NCBI GenBank assembly: GCA_023131055.1
Contig: JAGMAB010000007.1
Coordinates: 1-18,817, forward strand
Origin: Candidatus Parcubacteria bacterium
Lineage (GTDB): Bacteria > Patescibacteriota > Minisyncoccia > Minisyncoccales > JAGMAB01
Direction: 5' to 3'
Length of the DNA: 18,817 nt
Shown here: positions 456 to 18,817 of the stretch, piece by piece
How positions within the stretch are numbered: position 1 is the first letter of the stretch
Layout of the letters: the number at the start of each line of letters is the position of its first letter
Program-made: the position numbers and the translations under genes
The notes under the pieces: model-generated
Seen by the model: the letters and a program-made list of their open reading frames with translations, nothing else
What the model was told of the DNA's origin: nothing
Databases searched by the model: none

Positions 456-460
456 AAAAT

Positions 461-1702: not shown

Positions 1703-1714
1703 AAAAAGCTTAAT

Positions 1715-3346: not shown

Positions 3347-3369
3347 AAACACAACCAATTATATCTTTG

Positions 3370-3957: not shown

Positions 3958-3960
3958 ATG

Positions 3961-4031
3961 TCGGGCTACCGAGATTTGCACTCGGGCTAAATTCTCCCGA
4001 AGAACTCGTGCTACTATTACACTATAGCCCG
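3961..4031 (-). tRNA. tRNA-Pro (anticodon CGG) with atypical D- and T-loops. CCA is not encoded.
   Basis: Reverse complement reads CGGGCTA TA GTGT AATAGTA GCAC G AGTTC TTCGGGA GAATT TAGC CCGAG TGCAAAT CTCGG TAGCCCG A. Acceptor and anticodon stems are good, with U33 and G37. The T-loop reads UGCAAAU (G at position 55) and the D-loop lacks GG. Confidence 0.55.
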
Positions 4032-4067
4032 ATATACAATCATTTATCAATAATTAATAATCATTTA

Positions 4068-4090
4068 CTTAGAAATTAAAAATTTCTAAG
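4068..4090 (-). terminator. Perfect 10-bp stem hairpin overlapping the cca stop codon.
   Basis: CTTAGAAATT aaa AATTTCTAAG. It sits at the 3' end of the minus-strand cca gene, where the plus-strand context is AT-rich. Confidence 0.4.
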
Positions 4091-5552
4091 TGACCCAGTA
4101 TTTTTGCTTTGTCATCTTATCTTTTTTCATTTCTAATGTTTCTCTTTGTTTTTTGGCTTCCCGGGTTTTTGATTCTAATTCTTTGTCAGATAGTTGACCT
4201 AATTTCTTGATTTCTTTTTCCAAAAATTCTTTTTTGTTTTTTTGAGGGTCTTCCAAAACATAACCAAGTAAAACATCTAAAATTTGTCCTATCTTTATAC
4301 AAGGCCTGATTTTCAAAAGCCGCATTACATCATCTCCTTTAACTTTTAATTTCATAACTGAAATCGGGTCTTGGGCAACTTTTTCAATTAAATATCTAAG
4401 ATGCCTTAATTTATACGGTTCCGCTTTGGGACAGCCAGACCCAATCCTATCGCACATTCTCACTTGAAGCAGTTCATTTATGTTTTCTACGCCAACCTGA
4501 CGCACTAATCTCCTTACCGACGCTTTGCCAACCTCGTCAACATTATAATAAAACAAATGATATCTGACTAATTTAAAAATCTTCTCAATATCTTTTTTGG
4601 AAAATTTCAACCGATTTAGCAATTGAATAGTCATTTTTGCTCCAACTATTTCGTGGTTGTAAAAAGTAGCGTTTGGTCCTTTGCCTCGCTTGGTTCTAGG
4701 CTTTCCAATATCGTGAAGCAAAGCAGCCAAGCGAACATATTTGTTAAAATTGCTCTTAACAGCAAAATCCAAAGAACGCAAACTATGTTCATAACAATCA
4801 TAAATATGATGCTTGTTCTGGCTTATTCCATAACCCTCTTCTAATTCCGGAATAATATATTTTAACATTTTAAGCTGCCTTAAAAGCTCTATGCCTTCAG
4901 ACGCTTTTTCAGACATAATAATTTTCATCAGTTCATCTCTGATTCGCTCTTTGGAAATTGTTCCTAATAAAATAGAATTTTTTTTGATTGCTTGTTTGGT
5001 TTTTTCTTCAATCTGCCATCCGCCAGCTGGCGGACTTCCCAAAACAGATATTAAACGAACCGCTCTGAGCATTCTCAAAGCATCTTCATTAAACCTGTTT
5101 TCCGGCTTGCCCACCGCGCGAATAAGTTTATTCTCTAAATCTTTTTGCCCGTTAAATAAGTCAATAATTTCCAATTTTCCATCCATTGCTATTGCATTGA
5201 CAGTAAAGTCGCGTCTTTTCAAATCCTGTTCAATTGTCTTGGCAAACTTGATTTCATCAGGATGCCGTTTGTCAGTATATTTTGCTTCGCAGCGATAAGT
5301 GGTAATTTCAATTTCCTTAAGCTCTGGTTTTTTACTGCCTGTTTTAACGGTCACTGTTAAAAACTTGTTCTCATAAAAACTTTTAGGGAATATTTTTTGA
5401 ATTTCTTCCGGCTTAGCGTTAGTGGCAACATCCCAATCTTTGGGCTTAATTCCCGTTAAAAAATCCCTGACGCAGCCGCCAACAATATGAGCGCTAAAAC
5501 GCTTTTTCTTTAATTTATCAATTACAAGTTTTACTTCTTTTGGAATTTCCAT
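4086..5552 (-). CDS. cca: CCA-adding tRNA nucleotidyltransferase with an HD domain.
   Basis: N-terminal pol-beta nucleotidyltransferase motif GGCVRDFLTGIKPKDWDVATNAKPEEI. HD motif LLHDIGKP. Length 488 aa with a K/E-rich C-terminus. Confidence 0.85.
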   Translation of the reverse strand: MEIPKEVKLVIDKLKKKRFSAHIVGGCVRDFLTGIKPKDWDVATNAKPEEIQKIFPKSFYENKFLTVTVKTGSKKPELKEIEITTYRCEAKYTDKRHPDEIKFAKTIEQDLKRRDFTVNAIAMDGKLEIIDLFNGQKDLENKLIRAVGKPENRFNEDALRMLRAVRLISVLGSPPAGGWQIEEKTKQAIKKNSILLGTISKERIRDELMKIIMSEKASEGIELLRQLKMLKYIIPELEEGYGISQNKHHIYDCYEHSLRSLDFAVKSNFNKYVRLAALLHDIGKPRTKRGKGPNATFYNHEIVGAKMTIQLLNRLKFSKKDIEKIFKLVRYHLFYYNVDEVGKASVRRLVRQVGVENINELLQVRMCDRIGSGCPKAEPYKLRHLRYLIEKVAQDPISVMKLKVKGDDVMRLLKIRPCIKIGQILDVLLGYVLEDPQKNKKEFLEKEIKKLGQLSDKELESKTREAKKQRETLEMKKDKMTKQKYWVT

Positions 5553-5617
5553 AATCTAATCTTAACTTAAAAATTTGCTTTTTTCAATTGCCTTTGTTAG
5601 AATGACTTAACTGCCTC

Positions 5618-5689
5618 GCCCTCGTAGTGAAACGGATATCACGCGACGCTTCGGACGTTGAAGTCCGGGTTCGAATCCTGGCGAGGGCA
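5618..5689 (+). tRNA. tRNA-Arg (anticodon TCG). CCA is not encoded.
   Basis: GCCCTCG TA GTGA AACGGATA TCAC G CGACG CTTCGGA CGTTG AAGT CCGGG TTCGAAT CCTGG CGAGGGC A, followed by CAA. Confidence 0.85.
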
Positions 5690-5693
5690 CAAT

Positions 5694-6146
5694 ATGAATT
5701 TTCAATTACTAATGTTTAAAAAAATAGTTTTAATAATTTTATTGGCAGGTTTTGTTTTAATTCCTTTGATTTCACACGCAGCCGGATTAGTGCCTTGCGG
5801 AGAAGAAGGAAATCCTTGCCAACTGTGTGATTTTTTTGTTTTAGTTGATAATGTAATTGATTTTGTTTTGATAAAATTAGTTCCGCCATTGGCGGTTCTG
5901 ATGTTAGTAATCGGCGGAATAATGTTTGTAGGCGCGACTTTGGAATTTCTGCCGGGCGGACCAACTCTTTTAAGCCAGGCAAAAGCAATAATGACTTCAG
6001 TAGTAATCGGCTTAATCATAATTTATGGCGGCTGGATTATTATAGGATTATTTTTGAATACAATTGGTTTATCTGAATGGACTGGCGGAACTACTGGTAT
6101 TTTTTCAAACTGGAATCAAGGTTTTTTCACAATCCCTTGCGAGTAA
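5694..6146 (+). CDS. Secreted 2-TM cysteine-containing small membrane protein, candidate VirB2/TrbC-like pilin.
   Basis: MNFQLLMFKKIVLIILLAGFVLIPLISHA | AGLVPCGEEGNPCQLCDFF..., that is a signal peptide with AxA-like site. Two hydrophobic helices follow (LAVLMLVIGGIMFVGA and VVIGLIIIYGGWIIIGLFL) and a C-terminal Cys. The ORF track start at 5658 overlaps tRNA-Arg and was trimmed. Confidence 0.45.
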   Translation: MNFQLLMFKKIVLIILLAGFVLIPLISHAAGLVPCGEEGNPCQLCDFFVLVDNVIDFVLIKLVPPLAVLMLVIGGIMFVGATLEFLPGGPTLLSQAKAIMTSVVIGLIIIYGGWIIIGLFLNTIGLSEWTGGTTGIFSNWNQGFFTIPCE

Positions 6147-6151
6147 TTCCC

Positions 6152-6222
6152 GCCCCCATAACTTAATGGAAAAGTAGTTGCCTCTTAAGCAATTAATCCA
6201 GGTTCGAATCCTGGTGGGGGCA
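6152..6222 (+). tRNA. tRNA-Lys (anticodon CTT). CCA is not encoded.
   Basis: GCCCCCA TA ACTT AATGGAA AAGT A GTTGC CTCTTAA GCAAT TAAT CCAGG TTCGAAT CCTGG TGGGGGC A, followed by CAA. Confidence 0.85.
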
Positions 6223-6249
6223 CAAAGATAATTAATAATTTTTAAAACT

Positions 6250-6516
6250 ATGTTAAATCCAGAAGAAAAAACAAAAACAATCAAAAAATACAAAGTTCAT
6301 GAAACAGACACCGGGTCACCGGAAGTGCAGATTGCTTTGCTTTCCGAAGAAATCAAGCGCCTGCTTTTACATTTGAAAAAACACTCTAAAGACTTTCATT
6401 CCAAAAGGGGATTGTTAAAAATGGTTGCGAACAGAAGAAAACTTTTAACATATTTGAAAGAAGAAAGTACAAGAAGATATAACATCATTATTAAAAAAAT
6501 CGGTTTAAAAAAATGA
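6250..6516 (+). CDS. rpsO: 30S ribosomal protein S15.
   Basis: [49 protein letters not shown] matches the conserved S15 core. Confidence 0.9.
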
Positions 6517-7037
6517 TTATAAAGCATATTGGGCAAAGAGTGGCTGTGTTGATTGATGTTCAGAATTTATATCATTCAGCCAAAAATTTATATCAGTCCA
6601 GGGTTAATTTCCAGGAAATTTTGAAGTCTGCTGTGAGCGGGAGAAATTTAATTAGGGCTTTTGCTTATGTAGTAAGGACAAAAACCGGCGAAGAAAAGCC
6701 GTTTTTTGAAGCGCTCACAAAATTAGGAATTGAAACAAGAGTAAGAGACCTTCAGGAATTTTACGGCGGTATGAAAAAAGCTGACTGGGATGTGGGCATT
6801 ACCGTTGACGCTATCAGAATTTCTCCTGATGTTGACACTATTGTTCTAGGTTCAGGAGACGGAGATTTTCTCCAGTTGGTTGATTTTTTAAAAAACCAGG
6901 GGAAAAGAGTGGAAGTTATCGCTTTTGACAGGTCTGCGTCCCTAAAATTAAAAGAAGCGGCTGACGAATTTATTGACATAGGAAAAGAACCTAAAAAATA
7001 TTTATTAAAAAAAGAAAAAATTGTAGAAAAAAAATGA
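6513..7037 (+). CDS. NYN-domain (LabA-like, PIN-like) predicted ribonuclease.
   Basis: [15 protein letters not shown]...LIRAFAYV...[14 protein letters not shown]...[31 protein letters not shown], with the acidic residues typical of NYN/LabA. The start ATGA overlaps the rpsO stop and the stop ATGA overlaps the pnp start. Confidence 0.75.
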
Positions 7038-9133
7038 AAGAAAAAATTTACAAATTAGACATTGATGGCAAGGAACTTATTATTAAAATTACTGATTTAA
7101 CAGAACAAGCGTCCGGAAGTTGCTTAATCCAATATGGCGACACATTGGTTTTGGCAACAGCAGTAATGTCAAAACAGGAAAGAGAAGGCATAGATTTTTT
7201 TCCTTTAAGCGTTGAATATCAGGAAAGATTTTACGCCGCGGGGAAAATTCTGGGCTCCCGTTATATCAGAAGAGAAAGCCGTCCTTCTGATGAAGCGATT
7301 TTAACCGCGCGTTTGATTGACAGAACAATCAGGCCGCTTTTCCCGGAAAACCTAAAAAAAGAAATTCAAGTTGTTCTCACCTGTCTTTCATGGGACAGAG
7401 AAAACGACCCTGATATAATCTGCTTGATTGCCGCTTCTTTAAGTTTGGCAAGTTCTGACATCCCTTGGTCGGGTCCTATTGCCAGCGTAAGAGTCGGACG
7501 GCTGGATAACAAATTTATTCTCAATCCTACTTACGAGCAAAGAGAAAAAAGCGATTTTGATTTAGTAATATCAGGCATTGAAAAAAATCATGAGATTTTA
7601 ATCAATATGCTTGAAGGAGAAGGACAGGAAACAGAAGAAGACGCAGTTCTGCAGGCGGTTAAATTTTCAATGCCTTATTTAAAAAAACTTATTTCCTTTC
7701 AAAAACAGATTATTCAAGAAATAGGCAAAGAAAAAAGCTTGGTCAAAGCTCAAGAACAGGACATTGACTTGGAAAAAGACATCAAAGAATTCTTGGAACA
7801 ACGATTGGAAAAAATTGAAAACCTTGGCGCTCTTAAAGACGACTTGCTCTCTTTTGTTGCGGAAAAATATCCTGAACCAAAGAAAATAAATTACGCCAAA
7901 GATATTTTTGAAAAAGAAATAGAAAAAGCGCTCCATCAAAGAATAATTGCAAAAGAAGAAAGGCCTGATAGCAGGAAATTAGACGAAACAAGAGAAATTT
8001 CCTGCGCAACCGGCATCTTGCCAAGAACGCACGGGTCAGGGCTTTTCTGCCGCGGACTGACCAAAACTTTATCTATTCTTACGCTGGGCGCGCCGGGAGA
8101 TGTCCGTTTTTTGGAAGGAATGGAAATTGTCGGCAAGAAAAGGTTTATGCATCATTATAATTTCCCTGCTTACTGCGTCGGCGAAGTAAAGCCGTTCAGA
8201 GGTCCCGGGCGAAGAGAAATAGGGCATGGAATGCTGGCTGAAAAAGCTTTATTGCCGCTAATCCCTGATTCGGATGAATTTCCCTACACAATCAGGATTG
8301 TTTCTGAAAATTTGTCTTCCAACGGTTCCACATCTATGGCTTCTATTTCATCTTCTTGCTTGGCTCTGATGGATGCCGGGGTGCCGATAAAAACTCCTGT
8401 TGCTGGAATTGCCATTGGCTTAATACAAGATTCTTCAGGAAATTACAAAATTTTAACTGATATTCAGGGTCCGGAAGACCATTACGGCGATATGGACTTT
8501 AAAGTGGCAGGAACTGAAAAAGGCATAACCGCTATTCAAATGGATGTTAAAATTAAAGGCATTACTGAACAAATTCTAAAGCAGGCATTAGAACAAGGCA
8601 AAAAAGCAAGAAAGCAGATTTTGGAAAAAATGAAAAAAACAATAGCAAGTCCAAGGACAGAACTTTCGCCATTTGCCCCTAAAATTAAAACCTTGCAGAT
8701 TAATCCTGAAAAAATAAGAGAAGTAATCGGACCCGGCGGAAAAATAATTAACAAAATAATTGAAGATTGCGGAGTTACCATTGACATTGAGGATTCCGGC
8801 AAGATTTTTGTCGCTTCAGAATCAGAACAAGCAGTGGATAAAGCAATGGAATGGATAAAAAATATTACCAGAGAAGTGGAAATAGGAGAAATTTTCCAGG
8901 GCAAGGTGAAAAGAATTTTGGACTTTGGCGCTTTTGTTGAAATACTGCCGGGACAGGACGGCTTGGTTCATATTTCCGAATTAGCTCCGTATAGAGTGGA
9001 AAAAGTTGAAGACATAGTTAAAATAGGCGATACAGTGTCAGTAAAAGTGATTTCTGTTGACGAGCAAGGACGGATAAACCTTTCAATAAAACAAATAAAA
9101 GAACAAAATGACCATGGAAGAAAACACAAATAA
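7034..9133 (+). CDS. pnp: Polynucleotide phosphorylase.
   Basis: Two RNase PH-like domains (SNGSTSMASISSSCLALMDAGVPI), a KH domain (IREVIGPGGKIINKI) and an S1 domain (GKVKRILDFGAFVEILPGQDGLVHISEL). Length 699 aa. Confidence 0.95.
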   Translation: MKEKIYKLDIDGKELIIKITDLTEQASGSCLIQYGDTLVLATAVMSKQEREGIDFFPLSVEYQERFYAAGKILGSRYIRRESRPSDEAILTARLIDRTIRPLFPENLKKEIQVVLTCLSWDRENDPDIICLIAASLSLASSDIPWSGPIASVRVGRLDNKFILNPTYEQREKSDFDLVISGIEKNHEILINMLEGEGQETEEDAVLQAVKFSMPYLKKLISFQKQIIQEIGKEKSLVKAQEQDIDLEKDIKEFLEQRLEKIENLGALKDDLLSFVAEKYPEPKKINYAKDIFEKEIEKALHQRIIAKEERPDSRKLDETREISCATGILPRTHGSGLFCRGLTKTLSILTLGAPGDVRFLEGMEIVGKKRFMHHYNFPAYCVGEVKPFRGPGRREIGHGMLAEKALLPLIPDSDEFPYTIRIVSENLSSNGSTSMASISSSCLALMDAGVPIKTPVAGIAIGLIQDSSGNYKILTDIQGPEDHYGDMDFKVAGTEKGITAIQMDVKIKGITEQILKQALEQGKKARKQILEKMKKTIASPRTELSPFAPKIKTLQINPEKIREVIGPGGKIINKIIEDCGVTIDIEDSGKIFVASESEQAVDKAMEWIKNITREVEIGEIFQGKVKRILDFGAFVEILPGQDGLVHISELAPYRVEKVEDIVKIGDTVSVKVISVDEQGRINLSIKQIKEQNDHGRKHK

Positions 9134-10040
9134 GGTAAATGAAGAAAAACAAAAAAAGGAGTTTTTGAAAAGAACAGAAATACGAACAATGGCAAAAGAT
9201 ATCACTAAATTAAGAAAGATAGAAACCGAGAAAGAAAAACAAAGAATTATGGGTTTGCGACCCAAAGAACAAGACAAAAAACCCGTGCTTGCGCCAACAG
9301 CAGATATAAACAAGGAAACCTTAATTCCTAAGCCCTTGTCTAAAAAATCTTTTCCTTTTAAAAAACTTTTACCCAGAGCAATAGTTGTTTTAATAATTAT
9401 TTGCGCGCTTGGCTTGATTTTTTGGCTCATTGGAGCAAAAAAGGCTCCGGATGAGAAACCATTTGTACCGGAAATTACTCAACCAGATGAAGAAGAAATT
9501 GAAGAAAAAATTCCGGAAAAAATACCGGAAATTCATATTCCTGCTTGCTTAATTTTAACTGAACAAACAGAAATTCTGGAAATTTCTGAAACCCAAGACA
9601 TTGTTCAAGTTTTCTCTCAAATAATGGAGCAGGAATTGCCAAATGATGCTTTAATCCGGGTTGTAATTAAAAATATTAGCCAAGGACGCTTAGTATCTTT
9701 ACAAGAACTATCTTCTGTTTTTCAAATAGAAATTTCTTCAGAAATTTTTCAGAAATTTGGGCCAGATTATAGCTTAATTATTTATGGACAAGAGCAAGGA
9801 AAAAGAATTGCCTTTATCGCTAATATAAAAGAAAAACAAGGGCTAACTGAATCATTAGACAAATGGGAACAAGAATTAAAAGAATTCAAACCGGCAAAAT
9901 ATAAAGGCATTGCTTTCCGCTATCTGACTATCTCTGAACAAGACCACATTGGAATTTGTTATTCTTTTATTGACGATTTGTTTATCTGGACTTCTTCGGG
10001 CGAATTAATGGTTAAAATTATTGATAAACTAAGTGATTAA
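9108..10040 (+). CDS. Hypothetical membrane-anchored protein with a charged N-terminus, one TM helix and a C-terminal domain of about 190 aa.
   Basis: 310-aa ORF with K/E-rich N-terminal region, TM IVVLIIICALGLIFWLIG, then an acidic linker and a globular domain. It overlaps the pnp 3' end by 26 nt. The start could be a downstream Met. Confidence 0.45.
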   Translation: MTMEENTNKVNEEKQKKEFLKRTEIRTMAKDITKLRKIETEKEKQRIMGLRPKEQDKKPVLAPTADINKETLIPKPLSKKSFPFKKLLPRAIVVLIIICALGLIFWLIGAKKAPDEKPFVPEITQPDEEEIEEKIPEKIPEIHIPACLILTEQTEILEISETQDIVQVFSQIMEQELPNDALIRVVIKNISQGRLVSLQELSSVFQIEISSEIFQKFGPDYSLIIYGQEQGKRIAFIANIKEKQGLTESLDKWEQELKEFKPAKYKGIAFRYLTISEQDHIGICYSFIDDLFIWTSSGELMVKIIDKLSD

Positions 10041-10425
10041 AATACATTATATCATGATTGATAAAAAAATAGTCCAAGAGCTAAAACAAAAACTGGAAAA
10101 AGAAAAAACAGCTATTGAAAAAGAGCTTAAAACATTTGCCAAAAAAGACAAGAAATTAAAAGGGGACTGGGACACCCGTTTTCCGCGCTGGAACGGTGAT
10201 TCAAGCAGCAGTTCATCTATGGAAACAGCTGCGGATGAAGTTGAAGAATATTCCACTCTTTTGCCTATTGAACACAGCTTGGAATTAAAATTAAAAGATA
10301 TTAATGCGGCTTTGGAAAAACTCAAAAATAAAAAATACGGAATCTGCGAAAAATGCAAAAAGCCAATCAGCATTAAAAGATTAAAGGTTTATCCGGAAGC
10401 CAAAACCTGCAAAAAGTGCAATTAA
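10033..10425 (+). CDS. DksA/TraR-family C4 zinc-finger protein. An alternative start is at 10054.
   Basis: C-terminal CEKCKKPISIKRLKVYPEAKTCKKC (C4 zinc finger) preceded by coiled-coil-like KE-rich region. Confidence 0.7.
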   Translation: MIKIHYIMIDKKIVQELKQKLEKEKTAIEKELKTFAKKDKKLKGDWDTRFPRWNGDSSSSSSMETAADEVEEYSTLLPIEHSLELKLKDINAALEKLKNKKYGICEKCKKPISIKRLKVYPEAKTCKKCN

Positions 10426-10431
10426 AACATT

Positions 10432-11949
10432 ATGCCTTCTAAAGTTTTTTCAGCGGCTCTTTCGGGTTTAGAAGCCCAGCTCATTGAAGTGGAAGTAGAT
10501 GCCTCATACGGATTGAGGCATTTTGAAATTGTCGGCTTGCCTGACAAAGCGGTTCAGGAAGCAAAAGAAAGAGTTGGAGCCGCAATTGAAAGCTCTGGAT
10601 TTAAATCTCCCCATCACCAGTCAACCAGGGTATTGGTCTCTCTGGCGCCGGCTGATTTGAAAAAAGAAGGCTCTTTCTACGATTTACCAATTGCTTTGGC
10701 TTATCTTTTAGCCGCAGAAAAAATCAGATTCAATCCTTTGGATAAAATTCTTTTGGGAGAGTTAGCTTTGGACGGACGGCTAAGGCCGATAAAAGGAGTT
10801 GTTTCTTTTGCCATTGCTTGCAAGGAAAAAGGTTTTTCCGAACTAATCCTGCCAAAAGAAAACAGAACCGAAGCTTCTTTAGTAAAGGGATTGAAAGTAA
10901 TAGGCGTGGAAAATTTAGGAGAAGCAATCGCATATTTAGAAGGGAAAAAAGAAATTTCTGGGTTCAAAATAGATATAAAAGATTTTTTCCAGGCCTCTAA
11001 ATATCCTGTTGATTTGGCTTATGTCAAAGGACAGGAATCAGCTAAACGGGCTCTGGAAATCGCTGCGGCTGGCAGCCATAACATTATGATGACGGGACCG
11101 CCGGGCGCTGGCAAAAGCTTGTTAGCCAAAGCAATTCCGTCAATTCTGCCCCGGCTTTCTTTTGCGGAATCTTTGGAAGTGACGAAAATTTACAGCGTAT
11201 CCGGCTTGCTTCCCCAAAAAAAACCTTTAATCAATTTAAGGCCTTTTCGTTCGCCGCATCATACTTCCTCTGAAGTATCTTTGATTGGCGGCGGCAATCC
11301 TTTGAGAGCGGGAGAAATTACTTTATCCCATCGCGGAATTCTTTTCTTGGACGAGTTTCCTGAATTCCACCGCGATGTCTTGGAAAGTTTAAGGCAGCCT
11401 TTGGAAGAGGGAAAAATCACTTTATTGCGCGCAAAACAATGTTTAACTCTGCCTGCTCGTTTTACTTTAGTGGCAGCGGCCAATCCCTGTCCCTGCGGTT
11501 TTCATGGAGACCCTGAAAGAGAATGCACTTGCACGCCTTCCCAAATTCAAATGTACAGAAGAAAACTGTCAGGTCCTTTAATGGATCGGCTTGACCTTTT
11601 TATCCCGGTTCCGGCTTTAAAATACGAAAAATTAACCTCTGCTGACAAAGAAAATTCCAGCGCAAGCATTAAACAAAGAGTGGAAAAAGCCAGAAAAATC
11701 CAGCAAGACCGGTTTTCAGGAGATAAAACGAATTCAGAAATGGAAATCCCTGAAATAAAAAAATACTGCTCAATTGACAGTAAAACAGAAAACCTTTTAA
11801 GAGATTATGTTGATTCCGGCAAGTTATCAGCTCGCGGGTATCACCGGGTTTTGAAAACAGCCAGGACAATTGCTGATTTAGACAATTCTGAAAATATCAG
11901 ACAAAATCATTTATCCGAAGCAATTTCTTACCGCTTCCGCCAGAATTAA
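10432..11949 (+). CDS. YifB/ComM-family Mg-chelatase-like AAA+ ATPase.
   Basis: N-terminal Lon-like domain (VEVDASYGLRHFEIVGLPDKAVQEAKERV). Walker A GPPGAGKS, Walker B ILFLDEFPEF. C-terminal ComM/YifB tail. Length 505 aa. Confidence 0.9.
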   Translation: MPSKVFSAALSGLEAQLIEVEVDASYGLRHFEIVGLPDKAVQEAKERVGAAIESSGFKSPHHQSTRVLVSLAPADLKKEGSFYDLPIALAYLLAAEKIRFNPLDKILLGELALDGRLRPIKGVVSFAIACKEKGFSELILPKENRTEASLVKGLKVIGVENLGEAIAYLEGKKEISGFKIDIKDFFQASKYPVDLAYVKGQESAKRALEIAAAGSHNIMMTGPPGAGKSLLAKAIPSILPRLSFAESLEVTKIYSVSGLLPQKKPLINLRPFRSPHHTSSEVSLIGGGNPLRAGEITLSHRGILFLDEFPEFHRDVLESLRQPLEEGKITLLRAKQCLTLPARFTLVAAANPCPCGFHGDPERECTCTPSQIQMYRRKLSGPLMDRLDLFIPVPALKYEKLTSADKENSSASIKQRVEKARKIQQDRFSGDKTNSEMEIPEIKKYCSIDSKTENLLRDYVDSGKLSARGYHRVLKTARTIADLDNSENIRQNHLSEAISYRFRQN

Positions 11950-11953
11950 ATTA

Positions 11954-12961
11954 TTACTGAAAAGGATTTCTGGCTCCATTCACTCCAAAATGCACATGAC
12001 AGCCGGTAGACATACCCGCGCCGGGCGTGCCCGGCTCGCCGCCCATCAAAGCAATAACCTGTCCTTGAGAAACCTGTTGTCCCTGGCTCACCAACGCTTT
12101 TAAAATATGACCGTACATTGTCACTACTCCGTTAGGATGCAGGATTGTTATATGATTGCCCGCTCCGCCAAAAGCCCAGCGGGAAACAGAATTAGTTAAT
12201 TTTACTTTCAAAACTTTTCCTCCTGCTGCCGCGTAAATCACATCTCCGCATTTGCCGTTGCTGAAATCAATAGCGTTATACCAGTGAAGCCTTTGCGTAA
12301 TGCGGCAGGGAGCGGAAATAGGACAAATAAAATAACTATTAGCCAAAGGAACAGAAGAAGAAACAGCATATTGAACTTTTACCTTAGGCATTTTTCCTTC
12401 AGGAATAATTAAAATATCACCTATAAAAATATCCGCTTCGTTAGAAAGTTCGTTAAAAGCAATTATGTCAGAGGTTTTTCCCTCATATTTTTTAGCAAGC
12501 TCTGAAATTGTCTCGCCGGCTTTAACATGATGAATTATTCCGGAAACAGGGGACACTACTAATTTCTGGCCTATTTGAATAACAGAATTTTTATTTAAAT
12601 CATTTGCCCAAAGCAATGTTTCTAATGTGATGCCAAATTTATGCGCGATTGACCAAAGATTGTCTCCAGCTTCAATCTCATATTCAGTAATCGCTTTTTT
12701 AATGTCCTGTGGCTCATACGCTCCTACTAAAGCTCCCAAAACTTGAGGTGAAAAAATATTCGCCGGCGAACAAGCAGATATGGTATTTTTCCCAATTAAA
12801 AGAAAATCAGGGGATTCTAAAGCAAAACTTTTTGTCGTACTTAAAAACAAATCCTGATTATTATTTTTGACAGAATTTTCCTGCTCTGAATTATTAAAAA
12901 AAGATAAAGAAACCAAACCAATTAAAATAATTGCTACTATCAAAACTGCTTTTTTATACAT
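11954..12961 (-). CDS. Secreted LysM-domain M23 metallopeptidase.
   Basis: Signal/TM N-terminus and two LysM-like segments (YEIEAGDNLWSIAHKFGITLETLLWANDL and HHVKAGETISELAKKYEGKTSDIIAFNEL). M23 motifs HWYNAIDF...HPNGVVTMYGH...GCHVHFGV. Confidence 0.85.
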   Translation of the reverse strand: MYKKAVLIVAIILIGLVSLSFFNNSEQENSVKNNNQDLFLSTTKSFALESPDFLLIGKNTISACSPANIFSPQVLGALVGAYEPQDIKKAITEYEIEAGDNLWSIAHKFGITLETLLWANDLNKNSVIQIGQKLVVSPVSGIIHHVKAGETISELAKKYEGKTSDIIAFNELSNEADIFIGDILIIPEGKMPKVKVQYAVSSSVPLANSYFICPISAPCRITQRLHWYNAIDFSNGKCGDVIYAAAGGKVLKVKLTNSVSRWAFGGAGNHITILHPNGVVTMYGHILKALVSQGQQVSQGQVIALMGGEPGTPGAGMSTGCHVHFGVNGARNPFQ

Positions 12962-12990
12962 ATTATATTAAAATACCTTAACCAAATTAT

Positions 12991-13923
12991 ATGTCAAGTC
13001 AAAATAACCTGCTGTATCATACTAAGAAATTATTAAAAAAATATCAGGTTCTACCTTCTAAAAAACTGGGCCAGAATTTTTTAATTGATAAAACAGCAAT
13101 TAAAAAAATTATTGCGGCTGCAAATCTCCAGCCAAAAGATGTTGTTTTAGAAATCGGTCCGGGAACAGGAACTTTAACTCAAGAAATAGCAAAAAAAGTA
13201 AAACAAGTAATTGCCGTAGAAAAAGACGCAAAAATGCGCGAAATTTTAAAAGAAACAATGAAAGAATACAAAAATGTTAAAATCATCCAAGCAGACATTT
13301 TGAAAGTTATCAATAATAAATTATCAATAATTAATCAGGGCGAGAACATTTCTCGCCCTAAATTATCAGTAATCAATTACAAAGTGATAGGGAATTTGCC
13401 GTTTTATCTTACGGCGCCGGTAATCCGCAAATTCCTGGAATTGTTCGGGGTCAGACCCCGAACAATTCCACAACAGATGGTTTTTGTGGTTCAAAAAGAA
13501 GTGGGTCAGAGAATTTGCCCGCCTCGCCGAGCCCGCTCGGCGGGCGAGGCGGGCGCCAAACTAGGAAAAATGAATTTATTGGCGGTCTCGGTTCAGTTTT
13601 ACGCCAATGTAAAAATCATTGCTTATATCTCTAAAAAATGTTTTTGGCCTCAGCCAAAAGTTGACTCCGCTATTATCAAAATCACACCGCTGATTAATGC
13701 TGATAAAAATCTGATTAATGCTGATTTGTTTTTTAGAATTGTTAAAGCAGGTTTTTCGCAGCCAAGAAAACAATTGCTCAATACCTTATCTTCGGGATTG
13801 AAAGTTGAACGCGAGAAAACAAAAAACTGGCTTTTGAAAAACAATATCCCTGTAACACAAAGACCGGAAACATTAAGTATTAAAGATTGGATGTTGCTTG
13901 TTAAAAATATGCCCCGTAGTTAA
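12991..13923 (+). CDS. rsmA: 16S rRNA (adenine1518/1519-N6)-dimethyltransferase RsmA/KsgA, with two short in-frame insertions.
   Basis: LGQNFLIDKTAIKKII...VLEIGPGTGTLT...GNLPFYLTAPVI...KVDSAIIKITP. Extra segments (ELFGVRPRTIP and PPRRARSAGEAG) are encoded by GC-rich palindromes. Confidence 0.9.
   Translation: MSSQNNLLYHTKKLLKKYQVLPSKKLGQNFLIDKTAIKKIIAAANLQPKDVVLEIGPGTGTLTQEIAKKVKQVIAVEKDAKMREILKETMKEYKNVKIIQADILKVINNKLSIINQGENISRPKLSVINYKVIGNLPFYLTAPVIRKFLELFGVRPRTIPQQMVFVVQKEVGQRICPPRRARSAGEAGAKLGKMNLLAVSVQFYANVKIIAYISKKCFWPQPKVDSAIIKITPLINADKNLINADLFFRIVKAGFSQPRKQLLNTLSSGLKVEREKTKNWLLKNNIPVTQRPETLSIKDWMLLVKNMPRS
13437..13469. repeat. Perfect 33-bp palindrome (16-bp arms) inside the rsmA coding sequence.
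   Basis: GGAATTGTTCGGGGTC a GACCCCGAACAATTCC. It is in-frame and encodes ELFGVRPRTIP. Confidence 0.7.
13518..13553. repeat. GC-rich (about 80% GC) imperfect inverted repeat of about 36 bp inside the rsmA coding sequence.
   Basis: CCCGCCTCGCC GAGCCCGCTCGGCG GGCGAGGCGGG. The 11-nt outer arms are perfectly complementary and there is an inner CCGAGC/GCTCGG stem. The host gene is about 33% GC. Confidence 0.65.
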
Positions 13924-13941
13924 ATCTGAAAGATTTATACT

Positions 13942-16041
13942 ATGGGGTTTTACACTTTATTAAAAAAGGGTAAAATAAAACTAATGAAAACAAACATTAA
14001 AAAACAAGTTCTCTTTTTTAGCGCTGTTTTGTTTTCAATATCTCTTGGCATAATTATTCCTCTTCACTTTAGCCATGCATTTATAGCAGAGTCCATTGGA
14101 ATGTATGTAGGTTCCTGGATTATTGCAGGCGGCTTGCAGGTTGTTTTAGCTGTTTCCAGTTTAATAGTTGGTTTGGCAGGAATGATTTTAAGCTGGGTTT
14201 TAAGCCCTTATTTTATGTCAATGCCATATACTTCCGGAGGCGTTGTTGAAATCGGCTGGCCAATTGTTAGGGACTTTATCAATATGTTCTTTGTTCTTGG
14301 TCTTGTTGTAATTGGATTGGCAACTGCTTTGCGCTTAAAAGAATACCAAGCGCAAAAGGCCTTGCCTGTTTTAATAATTATTGCTATTTTAATTAATTTT
14401 ACGCCTGTAATCTGCGGTGTGATTGTTGACGCTTCAAATATCCTAATGAATTTCTTCTTGGAAGAAATATCTGGTTTTGGAACTATGATTAATCTTTTTT
14501 CCAGCCAGGGAGCAATGCTTGCCCAAACAATTACTGCTGACAGCTTTAGCCAGCTCGCGGCTCTTCCTTTTACCATTATAGGCAAAACACTTATTATGAT
14601 TGTTTTTGCCTGGGTTACCGCGTTTATTTTCTTTATGTATTCCATGCTTTTTATAATGAGATATGTAATGATTTGGGTTTTGGTGATTGTTTCGCCAATA
14701 GCGTTCTTTTCCAGAATTTTTCCGGCAACTAAAAAAGGTGAATATGTTTTCAAAAGTATTTTGGGCTGGGATGAATGGTGGAAGCAATTTTTTGAATGGA
14801 CATTAATCGGAGTTACCGGCGCCTTTTTTCTATATTTGGGTGAACAAATAATGAATGGATTTTCAATTTCAACTGCTGGCTGGTTACAAGGAATTCCGCC
14901 AGAAGGAGGAGGATGGGTTATAGATATAATTACGGCTCCGATTATTGAATTTATGAACACCATGCTGTCCTGGGGCGTTGTTCTGGCTTTTCTGTTTATC
15001 GGCTGGATGGTGGCTATTGAAACCAAAGCGCTTGGAGCAAAACATATTACCGACACTTTCAAAAAAATGGGTAAAAAAATGGGTGTCGCAGGATTAAAAG
15101 TAGGAGCCGGAGCAACTATAAAAGCAGGAGGTCTAATAAAAGACACGGCTTTAGGATCAGGAGCAGGATTTTATGGAGGAATAAAAACAGAAAAAGGATT
15201 AGGTAAAATTAAAGGTGCGGTAATGGGAGCTCATATGGGAGGAATATCAGGCATAAAGCAAGGAGCGGCAAGATGGTATAAAGACAAAGATTTACCTAAC
15301 AATGCAACTAGAATGGATAAAATAAAAGCAGGATTTCAAACTGCCTTTGAAGATGTAAAATCTATACCTAAAGCTGGCGCGAAAGCAGCAGCAAAAGATT
15401 TGGGAGTTCCAGAATTGTTTGAAGAACCCAAAAAACCAGGAGAAAAACCAGAAATGCCAGAAATGCCAGACTTACCATCGAATTTATCAGATGAAGAACG
15501 TACAGAACGCATAGAAGATTTCAGGGAAAAGGTAAACACATATGGAAAAGAAACGGAAGAATACTCCACACAGAAAAAACCTTCTGCCGCACCCGTATCA
15601 CCAGTAGAACCTGAAAAACCTTCTACTTCGCCTGTGACTCCGCCAGAAAAAAAGAAAACAGTTCAAGCAACATTTGGTCAACCCTCAGAACCCCAAGAAA
15701 AAGCAGAAAAATGGGGAGGAATAGTTCCGCCTACAACACCATCGAAAGAAACTACACCGCCACCTAAAGAAAAACAAACAACAGGAGAATTTTACAAAGA
15801 ATTAAAAGAAGAAAGAAGAGAAAAGAAAGAAAAACGTAAAGAAAGAAAAGAGAAAAAGGAAAAAGGAAAGGAAAAAGAAGCAGGATGGGGAGCAGGAAGA
15901 GAAAAACCTTCTGGAGTTTTCAAAAAAGCACGTATAAGAAGAAAAATTGAAAAAAGCACTGAAAAAATTATAAAGGAAAATAAAAAAAGAGAAGAGAAAG
16001 AACAAAAAGAAAAAGAAGAAAAAAAGGCAGGATGGAAATAA
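13942..16041 (+). CDS. Polytopic membrane protein, VirB6/TrbL-like candidate T4SS channel component, with a long low-complexity C-terminal tail.
   Basis: Signal/TM N-terminus and at least 7 hydrophobic helices over residues about 20-360. A Gly-rich linker (GVAGLKVGAGATIKAGG) follows, then a PEK/PT-rich segment, then a K/E-rich tail (EKKEKRKERKEKKEKGKEKE). This architecture is typical of TrbL/VirB6-family proteins. The start could be the downstream Met (MKTNIKK). Confidence 0.45.
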   Translation: MGFYTLLKKGKIKLMKTNIKKQVLFFSAVLFSISLGIIIPLHFSHAFIAESIGMYVGSWIIAGGLQVVLAVSSLIVGLAGMILSWVLSPYFMSMPYTSGGVVEIGWPIVRDFINMFFVLGLVVIGLATALRLKEYQAQKALPVLIIIAILINFTPVICGVIVDASNILMNFFLEEISGFGTMINLFSSQGAMLAQTITADSFSQLAALPFTIIGKTLIMIVFAWVTAFIFFMYSMLFIMRYVMIWVLVIVSPIAFFSRIFPATKKGEYVFKSILGWDEWWKQFFEWTLIGVTGAFFLYLGEQIMNGFSISTAGWLQGIPPEGGGWVIDIITAPIIEFMNTMLSWGVVLAFLFIGWMVAIETKALGAKHITDTFKKMGKKMGVAGLKVGAGATIKAGGLIKDTALGSGAGFYGGIKTEKGLGKIKGAVMGAHMGGISGIKQGAARWYKDKDLPNNATRMDKIKAGFQTAFEDVKSIPKAGAKAAAKDLGVPELFEEPKKPGEKPEMPEMPDLPSNLSDEERTERIEDFREKVNTYGKETEEYSTQKKPSAAPVSPVEPEKPSTSPVTPPEKKKTVQATFGQPSEPQEKAEKWGGIVPPTTPSKETTPPPKEKQTTGEFYKELKEERREKKEKRKERKEKKEKGKEKEAGWGAGREKPSGVFKKARIRRKIEKSTEKIIKENKKREEKEQKEKEEKKAGWK

Positions 16042-16046
16042 AAAAT

Positions 16047-16068
16047 AAGGGTAAATTAAATTACCCTT
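16047..16068. terminator. Bidirectional terminator hairpin between convergent genes.
   Basis: AAGGGTAA attaaa TTACCCTT. It lies immediately after the VirB6-like stop (16041) and overlaps the SPFH gene stop (16067-16069). Confidence 0.5.
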
Positions 16069-17371
16069 AACCTTGATTATTTTTTTCGGTTTTTTCCTCC
16101 TTTATTCTTTTCTCACTTTTCTCGCTGATGTCGCGGTATGCCCCTCTTACGGTTTCCTTGTATACCTCTTTTCCTAATTCACTGTCTTGTGGGAAAAATA
16201 CCGCGCCTTGAGTTTTTGTAATCGTATCCAATTTTTGCAGCATTTCCCACTCCTTTCTCGCCTCTTGAAAAGCTTCTGACTCCTCAATATCTTCCCTTTC
16301 CTGAATGCCTTTTCCAATTATCTCTATCTTTCTATCTATTTTTTTACCTTCGGCTTCTCCTTCTAACCGCTTTCTTTCTACTAATTTTTCTGCAATTTCT
16401 ATCTCTCTATCTGCTTCATACACTTTTGTCCTATATTTTTGTAGTTGTTCCGGAATGTCAAAGTCTTTTAACAGCAGAGTTACTAATCTCACTCCCCATC
16501 TGCTAAAATCTCTTGTTATCCATTTTTGAATCTCTTTGCTAATATCTCCCCCTCTCAATGCAACCACATCTTCCAGCGCAAAATCTTTGAGATAAGTTTG
16601 AATAGCATCCTGAAGTTTCGCAGGTACTAAATCGTCTCTTATCTCTGTTGTTCCGCCAACCACGCTATAACATATCCTTATTGGTTTATCTGCTATTACT
16701 GTGGCTTCAGCTACCATACCTATTGTTCCTCTTTCTTTAGGAAGTTCTACTCTTTCTCCTTTAGTAAAAAGAGAGATGCGAAGTTCTTTTTTAGAAACTT
16801 TCTTGTTTTCCGGGATTTTCATTAACCAATACGGCACTAAATAGGCTCCTTCTTTTAATTCTTTGTAAAACCCATCAAGCACCTCTACCATCCACACTTC
16901 TGCTGACGGCACTTTAACCCAACTCCTTTTCAGATAGCCAAAACCGACAAGCACTATTATCAATGAAATCACCAATAAAGAAATCGTAGATGTTGTCCAT
17001 ATTCCTATTGTAATGGCTTTATATATATTTAATAAAGCCCATATCGTAACCATTACTGATAGGATAATTGGTATAATCTCTGCAATTGGCACCCATCTTT
17101 TTCTTTCTTGCGCTTTTGCTTTAATATCCTCTATGACTTTTCGTACTTCTCTATCTTCCTCTGTTTCCTCTATTCTTTCTTCTTCTTCGGGTTTGGGCGT
17201 TACCTCTATCGTTTCCTCTGCCTTTTCTTTTCTCTGTTTTTCTTTTTTCTCTACTCTCCTTTCAAGAATCTTTTGGAGAAAGCTTTTTCTTTTTACTTTC
17301 TCTTTTTTTTCTTCTACATTTTCTTCTGTCATCTTTTTTCCTCCTTTTTCAACGCACTTCCTATTTTTCAA
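16067..17371 (-). CDS. SPFH/band-7 (stomatin/prohibitin/HflK/C-like) membrane protein with a K/E-rich N-terminal extension.
   Basis: TM helix VPIAEIIPIILSVMVTIWALL. SPFH-like core (EVWMVEVLDGFYKEL...TIGMVAEATVIADKPIRI...RDDLVPAKLQDAIQTYLKDFALEDV...ITRDFSRWGVRLVTLLLKDFDIP) followed by a coiled-coil EA/KR-rich region. Strong SD AAGGAGGaaaaaagATG. Confidence 0.75.
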   Translation of the reverse strand: MKNRKCVEKGGKKMTEENVEEKKEKVKRKSFLQKILERRVEKKEKQRKEKAEETIEVTPKPEEEERIEETEEDREVRKVIEDIKAKAQERKRWVPIAEIIPIILSVMVTIWALLNIYKAITIGIWTTSTISLLVISLIIVLVGFGYLKRSWVKVPSAEVWMVEVLDGFYKELKEGAYLVPYWLMKIPENKKVSKKELRISLFTKGERVELPKERGTIGMVAEATVIADKPIRICYSVVGGTTEIRDDLVPAKLQDAIQTYLKDFALEDVVALRGGDISKEIQKWITRDFSRWGVRLVTLLLKDFDIPEQLQKYRTKVYEADREIEIAEKLVERKRLEGEAEGKKIDRKIEIIGKGIQEREDIEESEAFQEARKEWEMLQKLDTITKTQGAVFFPQDSELGKEVYKETVRGAYRDISEKSEKRIKEEKTEKNNQG

Positions 17372-17399
17372 TATAATAATTTTGGAATGTGCTGGTTAA

Positions 17400-17427
17400 A
17401 CTATATCACACAATACGAATTTGTCAA
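17400..17427 (-). promoter_or_regulatory. Promoter for the SPFH gene. On the minus strand it reads TTGACA, a 16-nt spacer, then TGtgaTATAGT.
   Basis: The reverse complement of 17422-17427 is TTGACA. The reverse complement of 17400-17405 is TATAGT with an upstream TG. It is followed by a leader of about 55 nt and an AGGAGG ribosome-binding site. Confidence 0.45.
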
Positions 17428-17434
17428 ATTTATC

Positions 17435-17464
17435 TCTGACAACATTCAACGATCGTTGAAAGTT
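17435..17464. promoter_or_regulatory. 30-bp near-perfect palindrome, operator-like, in the divergent intergenic region.
   Basis: GACAACATTCAACGATCGTTGAAAGTTGTC. Its reverse complement differs at only 2 positions. The core CAACGATCGTTG is a perfect 12-mer. Confidence 0.5.
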
Positions 17465-17514
17465 GTCATTGTATGCGCGAGGTTTATCCACAGATAGAAT
17501 GTTTTATGTCAAAA

Positions 17515-17538
17515 GTATCTTGCTACGTAGCACGATAC
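17515..17538. promoter_or_regulatory. 24-bp imperfect palindrome with a perfect 10-bp core.
   Basis: GTATC tt GCTACGTAGC ac GATAC. The GCTACGTAGC core is self-complementary and the outer GTATC/GATAC arms are complementary. Confidence 0.4.
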
Positions 17539-17582
17539 TTTCTTCCTTTTTTCTCTTTTGGATATGACATTTCAAAACAGCC

Positions 17583-17625
17583 TTGACACAAAAAGTTGTC
17601 TTTTATGATTGGTTTGTGATAAAAT
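17583..17625 (+). promoter_or_regulatory. Candidate promoter(s) for the plus-strand operon starting at 17663.
   Basis: TTGACA (17583-17588), 16 nt, TATGAT (17605-17610). A second extended -10, TGaTAAAAT, lies at 17617-17625. Confidence 0.4.
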
Positions 17626-17662
17626 TTAATAAAGGGTAAAATGAATTAAAAGCAAAATCTCT

Positions 17663-18043
17663 ATGAATAACAATTTACAAAAAAAACCAAAAAAAATTCC
17701 TGCTGATATTCTGAAAGTGTTTTTTTCGGAAGAGACAATTTCGCATATTTCAGAAATTTGTCTGAAAAATGGAATTAAAGACGGCGAACAAATTAAAGAA
17801 ATCGCCAAACAAATCGGATTGGTTTTATTGGGCAAATTATCATCAAATAATTTGCCAGAAACATTGCAGGAAAAACTGCGATTAGAAAAAAACATTGCGG
17901 AAAACATTTATTTTGAAGCAAACCGCGTTATATTCTCGCAAATTAAAAAGAAATCAGAAAAAAAATCCGCGTCTGTCCCGCTAAAAAGCGGGACTATCGC
18001 AGGCAAATCAAAAAAAGACGCTTATCTTGAAACAATAGAGTAA
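17663..18043 (+). CDS. Hypothetical soluble protein, first gene of the putative T4SS-like operon.
   Basis: 126-aa ORF with no TM segments and a K-rich C-terminus. It is 1 nt from the next gene. No motif was recognised. Confidence 0.35.
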   Translation: MNNNLQKKPKKIPADILKVFFSEETISHISEICLKNGIKDGEQIKEIAKQIGLVLLGKLSSNNLPETLQEKLRLEKNIAENIYFEANRVIFSQIKKKSEKKSASVPLKSGTIAGKSKKDAYLETIE

Positions 18044-18044
18044 A

Positions 18045-18431
18045 ATGAGGTTTACAGTTCCAAAATTTATTGACCACGAGGCGAAAATAGTCGGACCATT
18101 AACTTTCAAGCAGTTTGCTTTTATCGGCACTGCGGTATTTATTGGTTTTATTCTTTATTTTACGGTTTCTTTTTCCATTTTTATAATTTCCTGCCTTGTT
18201 TTAGGAGGCGGTTCCGCGGCTCTGGCTTTTTTGAAAATTGAAAGCAAACCCTTGCCAGCTTTTTTGGGAAATCTTTTATTATTCAGATTATCTCCAAAAA
18301 TCTATATCTGGAGAAAAACAAAAAAGCGATTAAAAATTTTAAAGAGAGAGAAATTTGAAAAAGAAAAGGATAAAGAAGATGTTTCTTTGAAAATGACCAG
18401 AGAAGGCAAATTAAAAAAATTAAACTTTTAA
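18045..18431 (+). CDS. VirB3-like small 2-TM protein (PrgI/TcpE-like).
   Basis: KIVGPLTFKQFAFIGTAVFIGFILYF followed by a second helix IFIISCLVLGGGSAALAFL and a basic tail. This pattern, and the position directly upstream of a VirB4-like gene, is typical of VirB3/PrgI-family proteins. Confidence 0.5.
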   Translation: MRFTVPKFIDHEAKIVGPLTFKQFAFIGTAVFIGFILYFTVSFSIFIISCLVLGGGSAALAFLKIESKPLPAFLGNLLLFRLSPKIYIWRKTKKRLKILKREKFEKEKDKEDVSLKMTREGKLKKLNF

Positions 18432-18446
18432 TTTAGCAAAGCGATT

Positions 18447-18817
18447 ATGGCTCAAGGTTCTACTCAACAACTTTTAGAAGTTGACCAAATCAGAGAAGGA
18501 GTTGTCCTTCTCAAAAATAAAGCGATGAGGGGAGTAATGATGGTTTCTTCCTTAAATTTTGCCTTAAAATCAGAAGAAGAACAAGACGCCATTGTTTTTC
18601 AATTTCAGAATTTCTTAAATTCTCTGGATTTTTCTTTGGAAATTATTGTCCAATCCAGACGGTTAAATATTACCGGTTATTTGGATAAATTAAAAGAATT
18701 GGAAAACAAGCAGGAAAATGAATTATTAAAAACACAAACCGCTGAATATCAAAAGTTTGTCAGAAATTTAATTGCCGGAGGTGGAATTATGTCAAAAAAC
18801 TTTTTTGTTGTCACGCC
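18447..18817 (+). CDS. N-terminus of a VirB4-like T4SS ATPase. It is partial and continues beyond the window.
   Basis: MAQGSTQQLLEVDQIREGVVLLKNKAMRGVMMVSSLNFALKSEEEQDAIVFQFQNFLNSLDFSLEIIVQSRRLNITGYL. This resembles the conserved N-terminal domain of Gram-positive-type VirB4/TraE/PrgJ-like proteins (...DG.I.LKDG.....EV..INF.LKS..EQ..I...F..FLN.L....QI.V.SR...). The frame is open to the window end. Confidence 0.5.
   Translation, partial: MAQGSTQQLLEVDQIREGVVLLKNKAMRGVMMVSSLNFALKSEEEQDAIVFQFQNFLNSLDFSLEIIVQSRRLNITGYLDKLKELENKQENELLKTQTAEYQKFVRNLIAGGGIMSKNFFVVT

Follow-up and report, generated by a model that had tools for sequence, protein, structure and literature searches.

A GC-rich hairpin in frame in rsmA of a Candidatus Parcubacteria bacterium, with dispersed copies and a likeness to yeast mitochondrial GC clusters

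The GC clusters of yeast mitochondrial DNA have short terminal direct repeats (AG/TAG) that are regarded as target duplications, and they undergo unidirectional conversion into empty alleles. Short, palindromic and rich in GC, they lie in an AT-rich genome, mostly in intergenic DNA and also in frame in var1, and they show size polymorphism, common termini, association with tRNA genes and the behavior of recombination and gene-conversion hot spots (PMC8811140). Here we describe a bacterial locus that invites comparison with them. In an 18,817-nucleotide stretch of a Candidatus Parcubacteria bacterium (contig JAGMAB010000007.1 of assembly GCA_023131055.1, positions 1 to 18,817; hereafter “the window”), the rsmA/ksgA gene holds three hairpins, one of which, a GC-rich insertion of 36 nt that we call family A, has filled and empty alleles and recurs in other genes and other genomes.

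Several bacterial repeats might also serve as models for such hairpins. Rickettsia palindromic elements (RPEs) have a recognizable encoded peptide, number in the tens per genome and are found only in Rickettsia; repetitive extragenic palindromes (REPs) and the related REPINs are extragenic, present in high copy number and mobilized by RAYT (Y1) transposases; and MITEs (miniature transposable elements with inverted repeats), usually 50–500 bp long, combine terminal inverted repeats and a target-site duplication with an internal non-palindromic segment. RPEs are 100–150 bp, occur in high copy number and interrupt unrelated housekeeping genes without a shift of frame, at positions that the protein fold can accommodate (PMC10969869). 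REPs carry a terminal GTAG or CGTC tag (PMC3733652), and template switching is a documented origin of perfect hairpins, described for eukaryotic microRNA (miRNA) loci (bioRxiv 10.1101/2023.04.19.537475). For bacteria of the Candidate Phyla Radiation (CPR), we found no description of such elements in the literature, of which our coverage was incomplete.

The host gene and its three hairpins are as follows.

12991–13923, plus strand: rsmA/ksgA open reading frame (ORF), 310 amino acids, host of the three hairpins (ORF list, translation, Pfam).
13517–13554, plus strand: family-A GC-rich hairpin, GCCCGCCTCGCCGAGC-CC-GCTCGGCG[GGCG]AGGCGGGC (inverted repeat I16).
13436–13470, plus strand: perfect palindrome, 17+1+17, TGGAATTGTTCGGGGTC-A-GACCCCGAACAATTCCA (inverted repeat I4, arms 100% complementary).
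13337–13359, plus strand: third hairpin, AGGGCGAGAA-CAT-TTCTCGCCCT (10-bp stem, 3-nt loop, GC core GGGCGAGAA/TTCTCGCCC).

The product is a full-length RsmA/KsgA (Pfam RrnaAD, E = 1e-51, residues 24–301) that retains all invariants of the catalytic family in the ortholog alignment; its best solved relative is KsgA of B. subtilis (6ifs, E = 5e-46). The first-pass annotation, made from the letters of the window, had reported two palindromes that keep the reading frame of this gene, and both are present as described, encoding PPRRARSAGEAG (13517–13554) and ELFGVRPRTIP (13436–13470) in the rsmA frame; the hairpin at 13337–13359 is a further one that it did not list. Folded as RNA, the GC-rich palindrome reaches -35.3 kcal/mol (z = -4.1), the perfect palindrome -27.1 kcal/mol (z = -8.5) and the third hairpin -16.7 kcal/mol. 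None of 200 shuffles folds as stably as the original for any of the three. The other suggestion of the first-pass annotation, structured elements in the mRNA, may still hold. With the window extended to 37.7 kb of the same scaffold, we counted 12 perfect hairpins (stem ≥9, loop ≤8), vs. 2–10 (mean ~5) in 20 shuffles, and a 17-bp perfect stem is expected, by our own estimate, ~1e-4 times in a region of this size. Among the genes of these 37.7 kb, GC-rich perfect hairpins are confined to rsmA.

Family A is a precise insertion. The palindrome is 38 nt long at 89% GC, in a window of 35% GC, rather than the roughly 36 bp and 80% GC first reported, and it can be drawn either with perfect 12-nt outer arms or with 16 pairs and a 4-nt bulge. 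The net insertion is 36 nt, with edges ambiguous by the dinucleotide GC, so that it adds exactly 12 codons (PPRRARSAGEAG) where roughly 6–10 extra residues had been proposed for the palindromes. It sits at the codon boundary Cys|Ala, and three relatives (L005, L155 and L156) have a precise empty site, ATTTGC|GCC, with flanks on both sides nearly identical to those of the window. The sharp boundaries that ortholog alignment was expected to reveal thus exist for this palindrome; the perfect palindrome is not a clean insertion. Since none of the six frames of the family-A element contains a stop codon and its length is 3n, genes can retain it in three frames and in either orientation. A terminator scan reported neither 13436–13470 nor 13517–13554 (the latter lacks a T-run), and the third hairpin alone scores, on the antisense strand. 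Rfam gave no family match to the hairpins, with best E values of ~1 or worse and scores far below the gathering thresholds, and a comparison with CRISPR repeats yielded weak chance matches and no array. Directly 3′ of the element, window 13555–13566 reads AAA CTA GGA AAA (KLGK), vs. CCG CCG (PP) in relatives, so the loop beside the insertion is altered too; L130 is three codons shorter at the matching place.

The same 36 nt, with 0–2 differences, occupy the same codon boundary in at least five other rsmA lineages. The L001 copy is 36/36 identical at that boundary, in a gene whose RsmA product is 62% identical to that of the window. The L003 copy departs from the window element solely by a paired substitution, from CGCCGAGC/GCTCGGCG to CGACGAGC/GCTCGTCG, which keeps the inner stem, and the metagenome rsmA copies that share this C>A/G>T pair with L003 are likewise 34/36 identical. 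Between rsmA carriers the element is 34–36/36 identical, vs. 53–70% identity in the 150-nt flanks; by a simple binomial, the chance of 36/36 identity at a 65% background is 0.65^36, or ~2e-7. A metagenome scan with the 30-nt core of family A as query returned 24 contigs, 17 with rsmA filled at the same site (at least four alleles) and 7 with the element elsewhere. Further copies, which the first-pass annotation suggested looking for, thus exist for the GC-rich palindrome; for the perfect palindrome, ~300 kb of related loci and the viral collection held no second copy. The IMG/VR viral contigs contained neither the perfect palindrome nor the family-A core nor the third hairpin.

These carriers do not form a single lineage. 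In a neighbor-joining (NJ) tree of 123 RsmA sequences they are polyphyletic: the window is sister to P0002-4, which have no element, and the carrier P0023 is sister to P0089, which has none either. Carriers of the PPKLKERRRGKT insert family are scattered over the tree in the same way. Four rsmA alleles (L003, L133, L140 and L130) are recombination mosaics, in which stretches of 100% identity are interspersed with stretches of 46–76%, so recombination can pass the filled or the empty state from one related allele to another. This process cannot account for identity limited to the element, however, because the alleles are 60–65% identical right up to the element edges. The mosaic alleles come from groundwater and sediment metagenomes, and their divergent cassette spans the hairpin-bearing loops 1–2.

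Outside rsmA, family A lies in frame in three further kinds of gene, identified by Pfam assignments. The copy in gatC is on the opposite strand and encodes RLARRAGSSRRA; that in a DEDDh/RNase_T exonuclease gene is in a different reading frame and encodes PASTSPLVGRGG; that in an ATE-like gene encodes PPRRARSSGEAG. Within the ATE-like family the element stands at one shared site in 3 of 121 sequences, oriented as in rsmA in L139, inverted in L157 (947–1642; PPRPMSGLVEAG) and with two unpaired substitutions in L158 (10001–10603; PPQRASSSGEAG); either the element center flips in place or insertion recurs at this site. Intergenic copies complete the picture. Two different genomes (L143, 612–995; L144, 3993–4175) carry the hairpin inside a direct duplicate of the first 12–30 nt of tRNA-Gln(CTG), upstream of the intact tRNA, and others lie within intergenic arrays of other GC hairpins (L151 and L152); some intergenic copies come directly after genes (L144 and L151). 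Rfam recognized only the neighboring tRNAs at the intergenic copies. Between the tRNA-Gln duplicate and the tRNA, L143 has an 80-aa GIY-YIG nuclease ORF (676–918) and L144 only ~70 nt; such a gene is not required as a partner of the element, since the second genome has the hairpin without it.

The insertion sites have some features in common. The left flanks read TTTGC in rsmA, TTTTGC in gatC and TTTGGC in the ATE-like gene, which across these three sites hints at a target preference or at microhomology. Long target duplications were looked for and not found around the rsmA and ATE-like copies; they are present around the gatC copy (11 nt) and around the third hairpin (18/21), and a long target duplication is thus not a general rule. 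At the protein level, a search with 12 possible translations of the element joined together found nothing at E ≤ 10, as matches this short cannot reach significance among 5.8 billion proteins. Loci L006–L125, retrieved by a scan with a 14-nt GC-rich pattern, are chance matches in high-GC genomes and were left out. The first-pass proposal of a mobile palindrome in frame accordingly suits the GC-rich hairpin, with its precise boundaries and its copies in other genes, frames and orientations and in intergenic DNA.

All three hairpins are placed where the protein appears tolerant. An AlphaFold 2 model of RsmA has a mean predicted local distance difference test score (pLDDT) of 81, with values <50 at residues 113–125 and 181–191 and ~60 around 150–160, and the three hairpin-encoded segments coincide with these low-pLDDT regions and with gaps against B. 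subtilis KsgA. On the best reading of this model, the hairpins would occupy permissive, structurally disordered loops of RsmA. A mimic of the KsgA substrate (helix 45, with its GGAA loop) was considered as the reason for the enrichment in rsmA and rejected: the hairpins have no GGAA-type loop, and the same element lies in unrelated genes.

The perfect palindrome and the third hairpin probably have a different history from family A. The former, first described as 33 bp, is indeed perfect and extends one pair further (13436–13470, 17-nt arms). Helix KFLE and strand MVFVVQKEV border the loop that holds it. The left arm begins within conserved codons (CTG GAA), the center, GTC AGA CCC CGA (VRPR), agrees with other orthologs in this loop, and the segment exceeds the usual loop of the clade by a net ~4–5 codons, fewer than had been proposed. 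L005, L155 and L156 have an unrelated 14+1+14 palindrome, GGATTGGTGAAGCC-A-GGCTTCACCAATCC, instead, between near-identical immediate flanks, and different perfect hairpins again occupy this loop in L001 and L003. In L001 a 12-nt insertion makes CTGGCGATG, which exactly reverse-complements CATCGCCAG, 5 nt farther downstream; snap-back or template-switch synthesis gives rise to inverted copies of this sort. The pre-existing coding part and the different private palindrome in each relative point to local generation and turnover rather than insertion of a pre-formed repeat. The idea of a mobile element is thus not supported for this palindrome, which consists partly of pre-existing coding sequence and has no second copy in the DNA searched.

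The third hairpin lies in the loop before strand YKVIGNLP. It is common to the window and to L005, L155 and L156 only (one mismatch) and absent from the other orthologs, and it is set between two direct repeats.

13317–13337, plus strand: left direct-repeat copy, TAAATTATCAATAATTAATCA, encoding KLSIIN (18/21 match to the right copy).
13359–13379, plus strand: right direct-repeat copy, TAAATTATCAGTAATCAATTA, encoding KLSVIN (18/21 match to the left copy).

Together with one repeat copy the hairpin amounts to 14 codons, and its removal restores the loop length of P0005. In L155 a second hairpin of similar stem, GTTCCTCGC-AA-GCGAGAAC, has been added beside it.

The rsmA gene is a hot spot for inserts. 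Among its 120 best RsmA homologs, some 25 carry one in the same five-residue loop as family A (C-AKPPx-M), drawn from at least eight unrelated sequence families, and several of these inserts have termini CCCGCC...GGCGGG in common. The hairpin of this loop in L127 reads CCCGCC-GAA-GCTC-AAA-GAGC-GAA-GGCGGG, and L128 has a related double copy. A second dispersed family, CCCTCTCC..GGAGAGGG, is found both in frame (PLLEERG, PLSLGRG, PLLGEG) and in intergenic DNA, and in seven homologs of the ATE-like gene a further one (PAPHRSGATGAV / PALNRPAGSGLV) stands at a neighboring site. Relative to the window, the comM-like gene of L005 has an in-frame 33-nt hairpin insert, CCCCCACACCAAA..TTTGGTAGTGGGGG, at 6158–6190, and pnp of L005 and of L155 has an in-frame 30-nt hairpin insert, GGAGAAAAA...TTTTTTCTCC, opposite window ~7796–7804. 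The sites of the second dispersed family and the three families that we propose are listed here.

L139 162–211; L151 1536–1556; L152 1271–1293; proteins P0121–P0240: loci and proteins bearing on the CCCTCTCC..GGAGAGGG family and on the further one in the ATE-like gene.
Proposed family A: GCCCGCCTCG[A/C]CGAGC...
Proposed family B: CCCGCC-GAA-stem-AAA-stem-GAA-GGCGGG.
Proposed family C: CCCTCTCC...GGAGAGGG.

As for the surroundings, the window resembles a chromosomal segment of CPR/Parcubacteria type, and a protein identical to its RsmA is on record under Candidatus Parcubacteria bacterium. The other genes of the window encode polynucleotide phosphorylase (PNPase), a ComM-like Mg-chelatase, a LysM-M23 peptidase, type-IV-secretion-like proteins and four tRNAs. 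The cluster rpmH-rnpA-yidD-yidC-jag and dnaA lies ~14 kb from rsmA (L154, 19900 onward, past the right end of the window); with dnaA nearby, rsmA is origin-proximal here and, by synteny (L127), in relatives. Two AT-rich, near-perfect palindromes with no spacer, at window 17437–17468 (16-nt arms, 94%) and 17512–17541 (15-nt arms, 93%), are intergenic and upstream of PrgI/TraC/TraG-like secretion genes, where they may be operator sites. A GC-rich stretch at window 12000–12053, in the minus-strand M23 peptidase gene, contains the small palindrome GCCGGGC-GT-GCCCGGC and encodes MGGEPGTPGAGMSTG close to the M23 catalytic motif.

Taken together, these observations make it probable, in our judgment, that hairpin insertions and deletions accumulated in three permissive loops of RsmA, with family A as a GC-cluster-like element gained in the lineage of the window and the two private hairpins made locally. 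Family A would then be a small, non-autonomous, highly conserved dispersed element with few copies per genome, perhaps selfish or neutral, that is tolerated in a permissive loop and translated as 12 residues rich in Pro, Arg, Ala and Gly. Its gain at ATTTGC|GCC would most likely be recent in the window lineage: the hairpin may have been copied from another genomic copy into a preferred site of TTTG(G)C type, whether by gene conversion, by template switching or by a trans-acting, hairpin-specific enzyme, and homologous recombination would then redistribute the filled and the empty alleles of rsmA. The perfect palindrome and the third hairpin would most likely stem from local snap-back or template-switch synthesis, in which neighboring sequence is copied in inverted form. 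The data themselves show the insertion polymorphism, the dispersal, the capacity for translation in frame and the position in loops; the selfish or neutral nature, the direction of change and the mechanism are inferred.

A number of points weigh against this reading. No transposase or RAYT gene was found in any fetched locus, and the rsmA junction of family A shows no target-site duplication beyond the ambiguous GC. The 37.7 kb of the same genome hold no further copy of any of the three hairpins, and no contig of 30–70 kb has two copies of family A; at most one copy per contig is unlike selfish repeats, which number tens to hundreds. The NJ tree is approximate, and it is parsimony that decides between gain and loss in the lineage of the window. 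That the rsmA copies share a site, and the ATE-like copies likewise, could go back to a single old insertion that was selected and then subject to many losses and to recombination, instead of to repeated insertion, and the near-absolute conservation across divergent hosts may equally well mean functional constraint. The perfect palindrome, for its part, could belong to a repeat family.

On a broader reading, which we put forward tentatively and with a good deal of doubt, CPR bacteria (Patescibacteria) may possess a bacterial counterpart of the mitochondrial GC clusters, i.e., families of hairpins of 30–40 nt that enter conserved genes again and again at one codon boundary and in either orientation, prefer sites of TTTG(G)C type, are copied or homed by an undescribed, hairpin-specific process, and stay near-identical across hosts that differ by 35–40% in housekeeping DNA.

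The alternatives differ in how much of the evidence they account for. In the main rival, which we regard as unlikely, the 36-nt hairpin would be a nucleic-acid element with a function in cis, inserted once, long ago, then selected, precisely lost in many lineages and moved by recombination; candidates would be a protein-bound DNA or RNA hairpin, an RNase III or mRNA-stability site, or a chromosome-organization site. Constraint of this kind would suit the 36/36 identity beside flanks that are 60–70% identical, the paired C>A/G>T change that keeps the inner stem, the low copy number, the same site filled in many lineages, the distance of only ~14 kb between rsmA and dnaA, the existence of recombination mosaics, and the intergenic copies at an orthologous place beside tRNA-Gln in two genomes. 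It sits poorly, however, with copies in unrelated genes, three reading frames and both orientations, with closest relatives that lack family A, with the stem-breaking single substitutions in the ATE-like copies of L157 and L158, with quite different hairpins at the same rsmA loop in other lineages, and with the absence of an Rfam match; moreover, arm-to-arm correction can keep palindrome arms complementary without selection. We also considered a parS-like or origin-proximal site function, for which position and low copy number are the sole evidence.

That all three hairpins were instead made on the spot, by template switching or quasi-palindrome correction with no element moving at all, seems improbable. 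The private palindromes that differ in every relative at the same loop, the L001 insertion that exactly inverts adjacent sequence, the second, similar hairpin beside the third in L155, and the hairpin indels in comM and pnp all look like such local synthesis, but an identical sequence of 30–38 nt stands in at least eight unrelated genomic contexts and many genomes, and purely local generation cannot explain family A because of this recurrence. Still harder to credit is that events at the level of the RNA or of the ribosome pass over or take out the hairpins, as in the translational bypassing of inserts that derive from GC clusters in Magnusiomyces mitochondria: mitochondrial genes with GC-cluster inserts are a precedent (PMC8811140) and the hairpins are very stable, yet every in-gene insert keeps the frame and is free of stops, which bypassing would make unnecessary, and we saw no take-off and landing codon pair or bypass signal, although no search was aimed at these. 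An artefact of assembly or a chimera has next to no chance of being the explanation, as the same element occupies the same site in independent assemblies (ENA, NCBI, JGI and Logan, from several projects), the frame is intact and the RsmA protein has been recorded twice.

If the gain of family A and the local origin of the private hairpins were confirmed genome-wide, streamlined CPR genomes would still be invaded or reshaped by tiny hairpin elements, a fair share of the length variation of housekeeping proteins in CPR bacteria would trace to DNA-level events rather than to protein selection, and a 36-nt sequence could stay identical across deeply divergent hosts. The inserts, as low-complexity loops of Pro, Arg, Gly and Ala, confuse alignment, phylogeny and structure prediction of CPR proteins, and they mark recombination break-points. 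They would also open a bacterial route to a long-standing and unsolved problem, the way in which the GC clusters of mitochondria move.

How, then, does family A compare with described repeats? The first-pass annotation had likened both palindromes to RPEs or REP-like MITEs, a likeness that for the GC-rich one breaks down on length, low copy number, the want of a clear target-site duplication and the absence of a terminal GTAG or CGTC tag. With REPs and REPINs it shares the form of a 20–40-nt, GC-rich, imperfect palindrome with a bulge and the presence of some copies in intergenic hairpin arrays (L151 and L152); unlike REPs, it has the termini GCCCGCC...GGCGGGC, with CGTC internal only and in the A/T variant only. 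Its copies are mostly intragenic and few in the DNA examined, and no Y1_Tnp domain occurs among the genes called in the fetched loci. Like MITEs and SPRITE (the mobile, terminator-like hairpins of pneumococci), it is a small, non-autonomous hairpin repeat with some copies directly after genes, but it differs from MITEs as one single hairpin of 36 nt with only the ambiguous GC repeated, and from SPRITE in that the rsmA hairpin has no T-run and no terminator score on the coding strand. As RPEs do, family A stands in frame in genes (rsmA, gatC, exonuclease and ATE-like), and the rsmA insert falls in a low-pLDDT loop; at 36–38 nt, in low copy number and in several CPR lineages, it departs from them. 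The private palindromes (window 13436–13470 and L001) resemble template-switch hairpins in containing inverted copies of adjacent, pre-existing sequence, whereas those of miRNA loci are not, as here, products in frame in bacterial coding sequence.

The nearest analogue of family A is the GC cluster of yeast mitochondria. The two differ in that the host here is a bacterium, no AG/TAG terminal repeat was seen, copies are few in the DNA examined, there is no sequence relationship, and the same cluster is found across hosts whose housekeeping DNA is only ~60–65% identical. Their likeness extends to composition and arrangement alike: family A is 89% GC in a window of 35% GC, has filled and empty alleles and includes both intergenic and in-frame copies, and different hairpins of these genomes have common termini, stand in some cases beside tRNA genes and accompany rsmA mosaics, much as the yeast clusters do.

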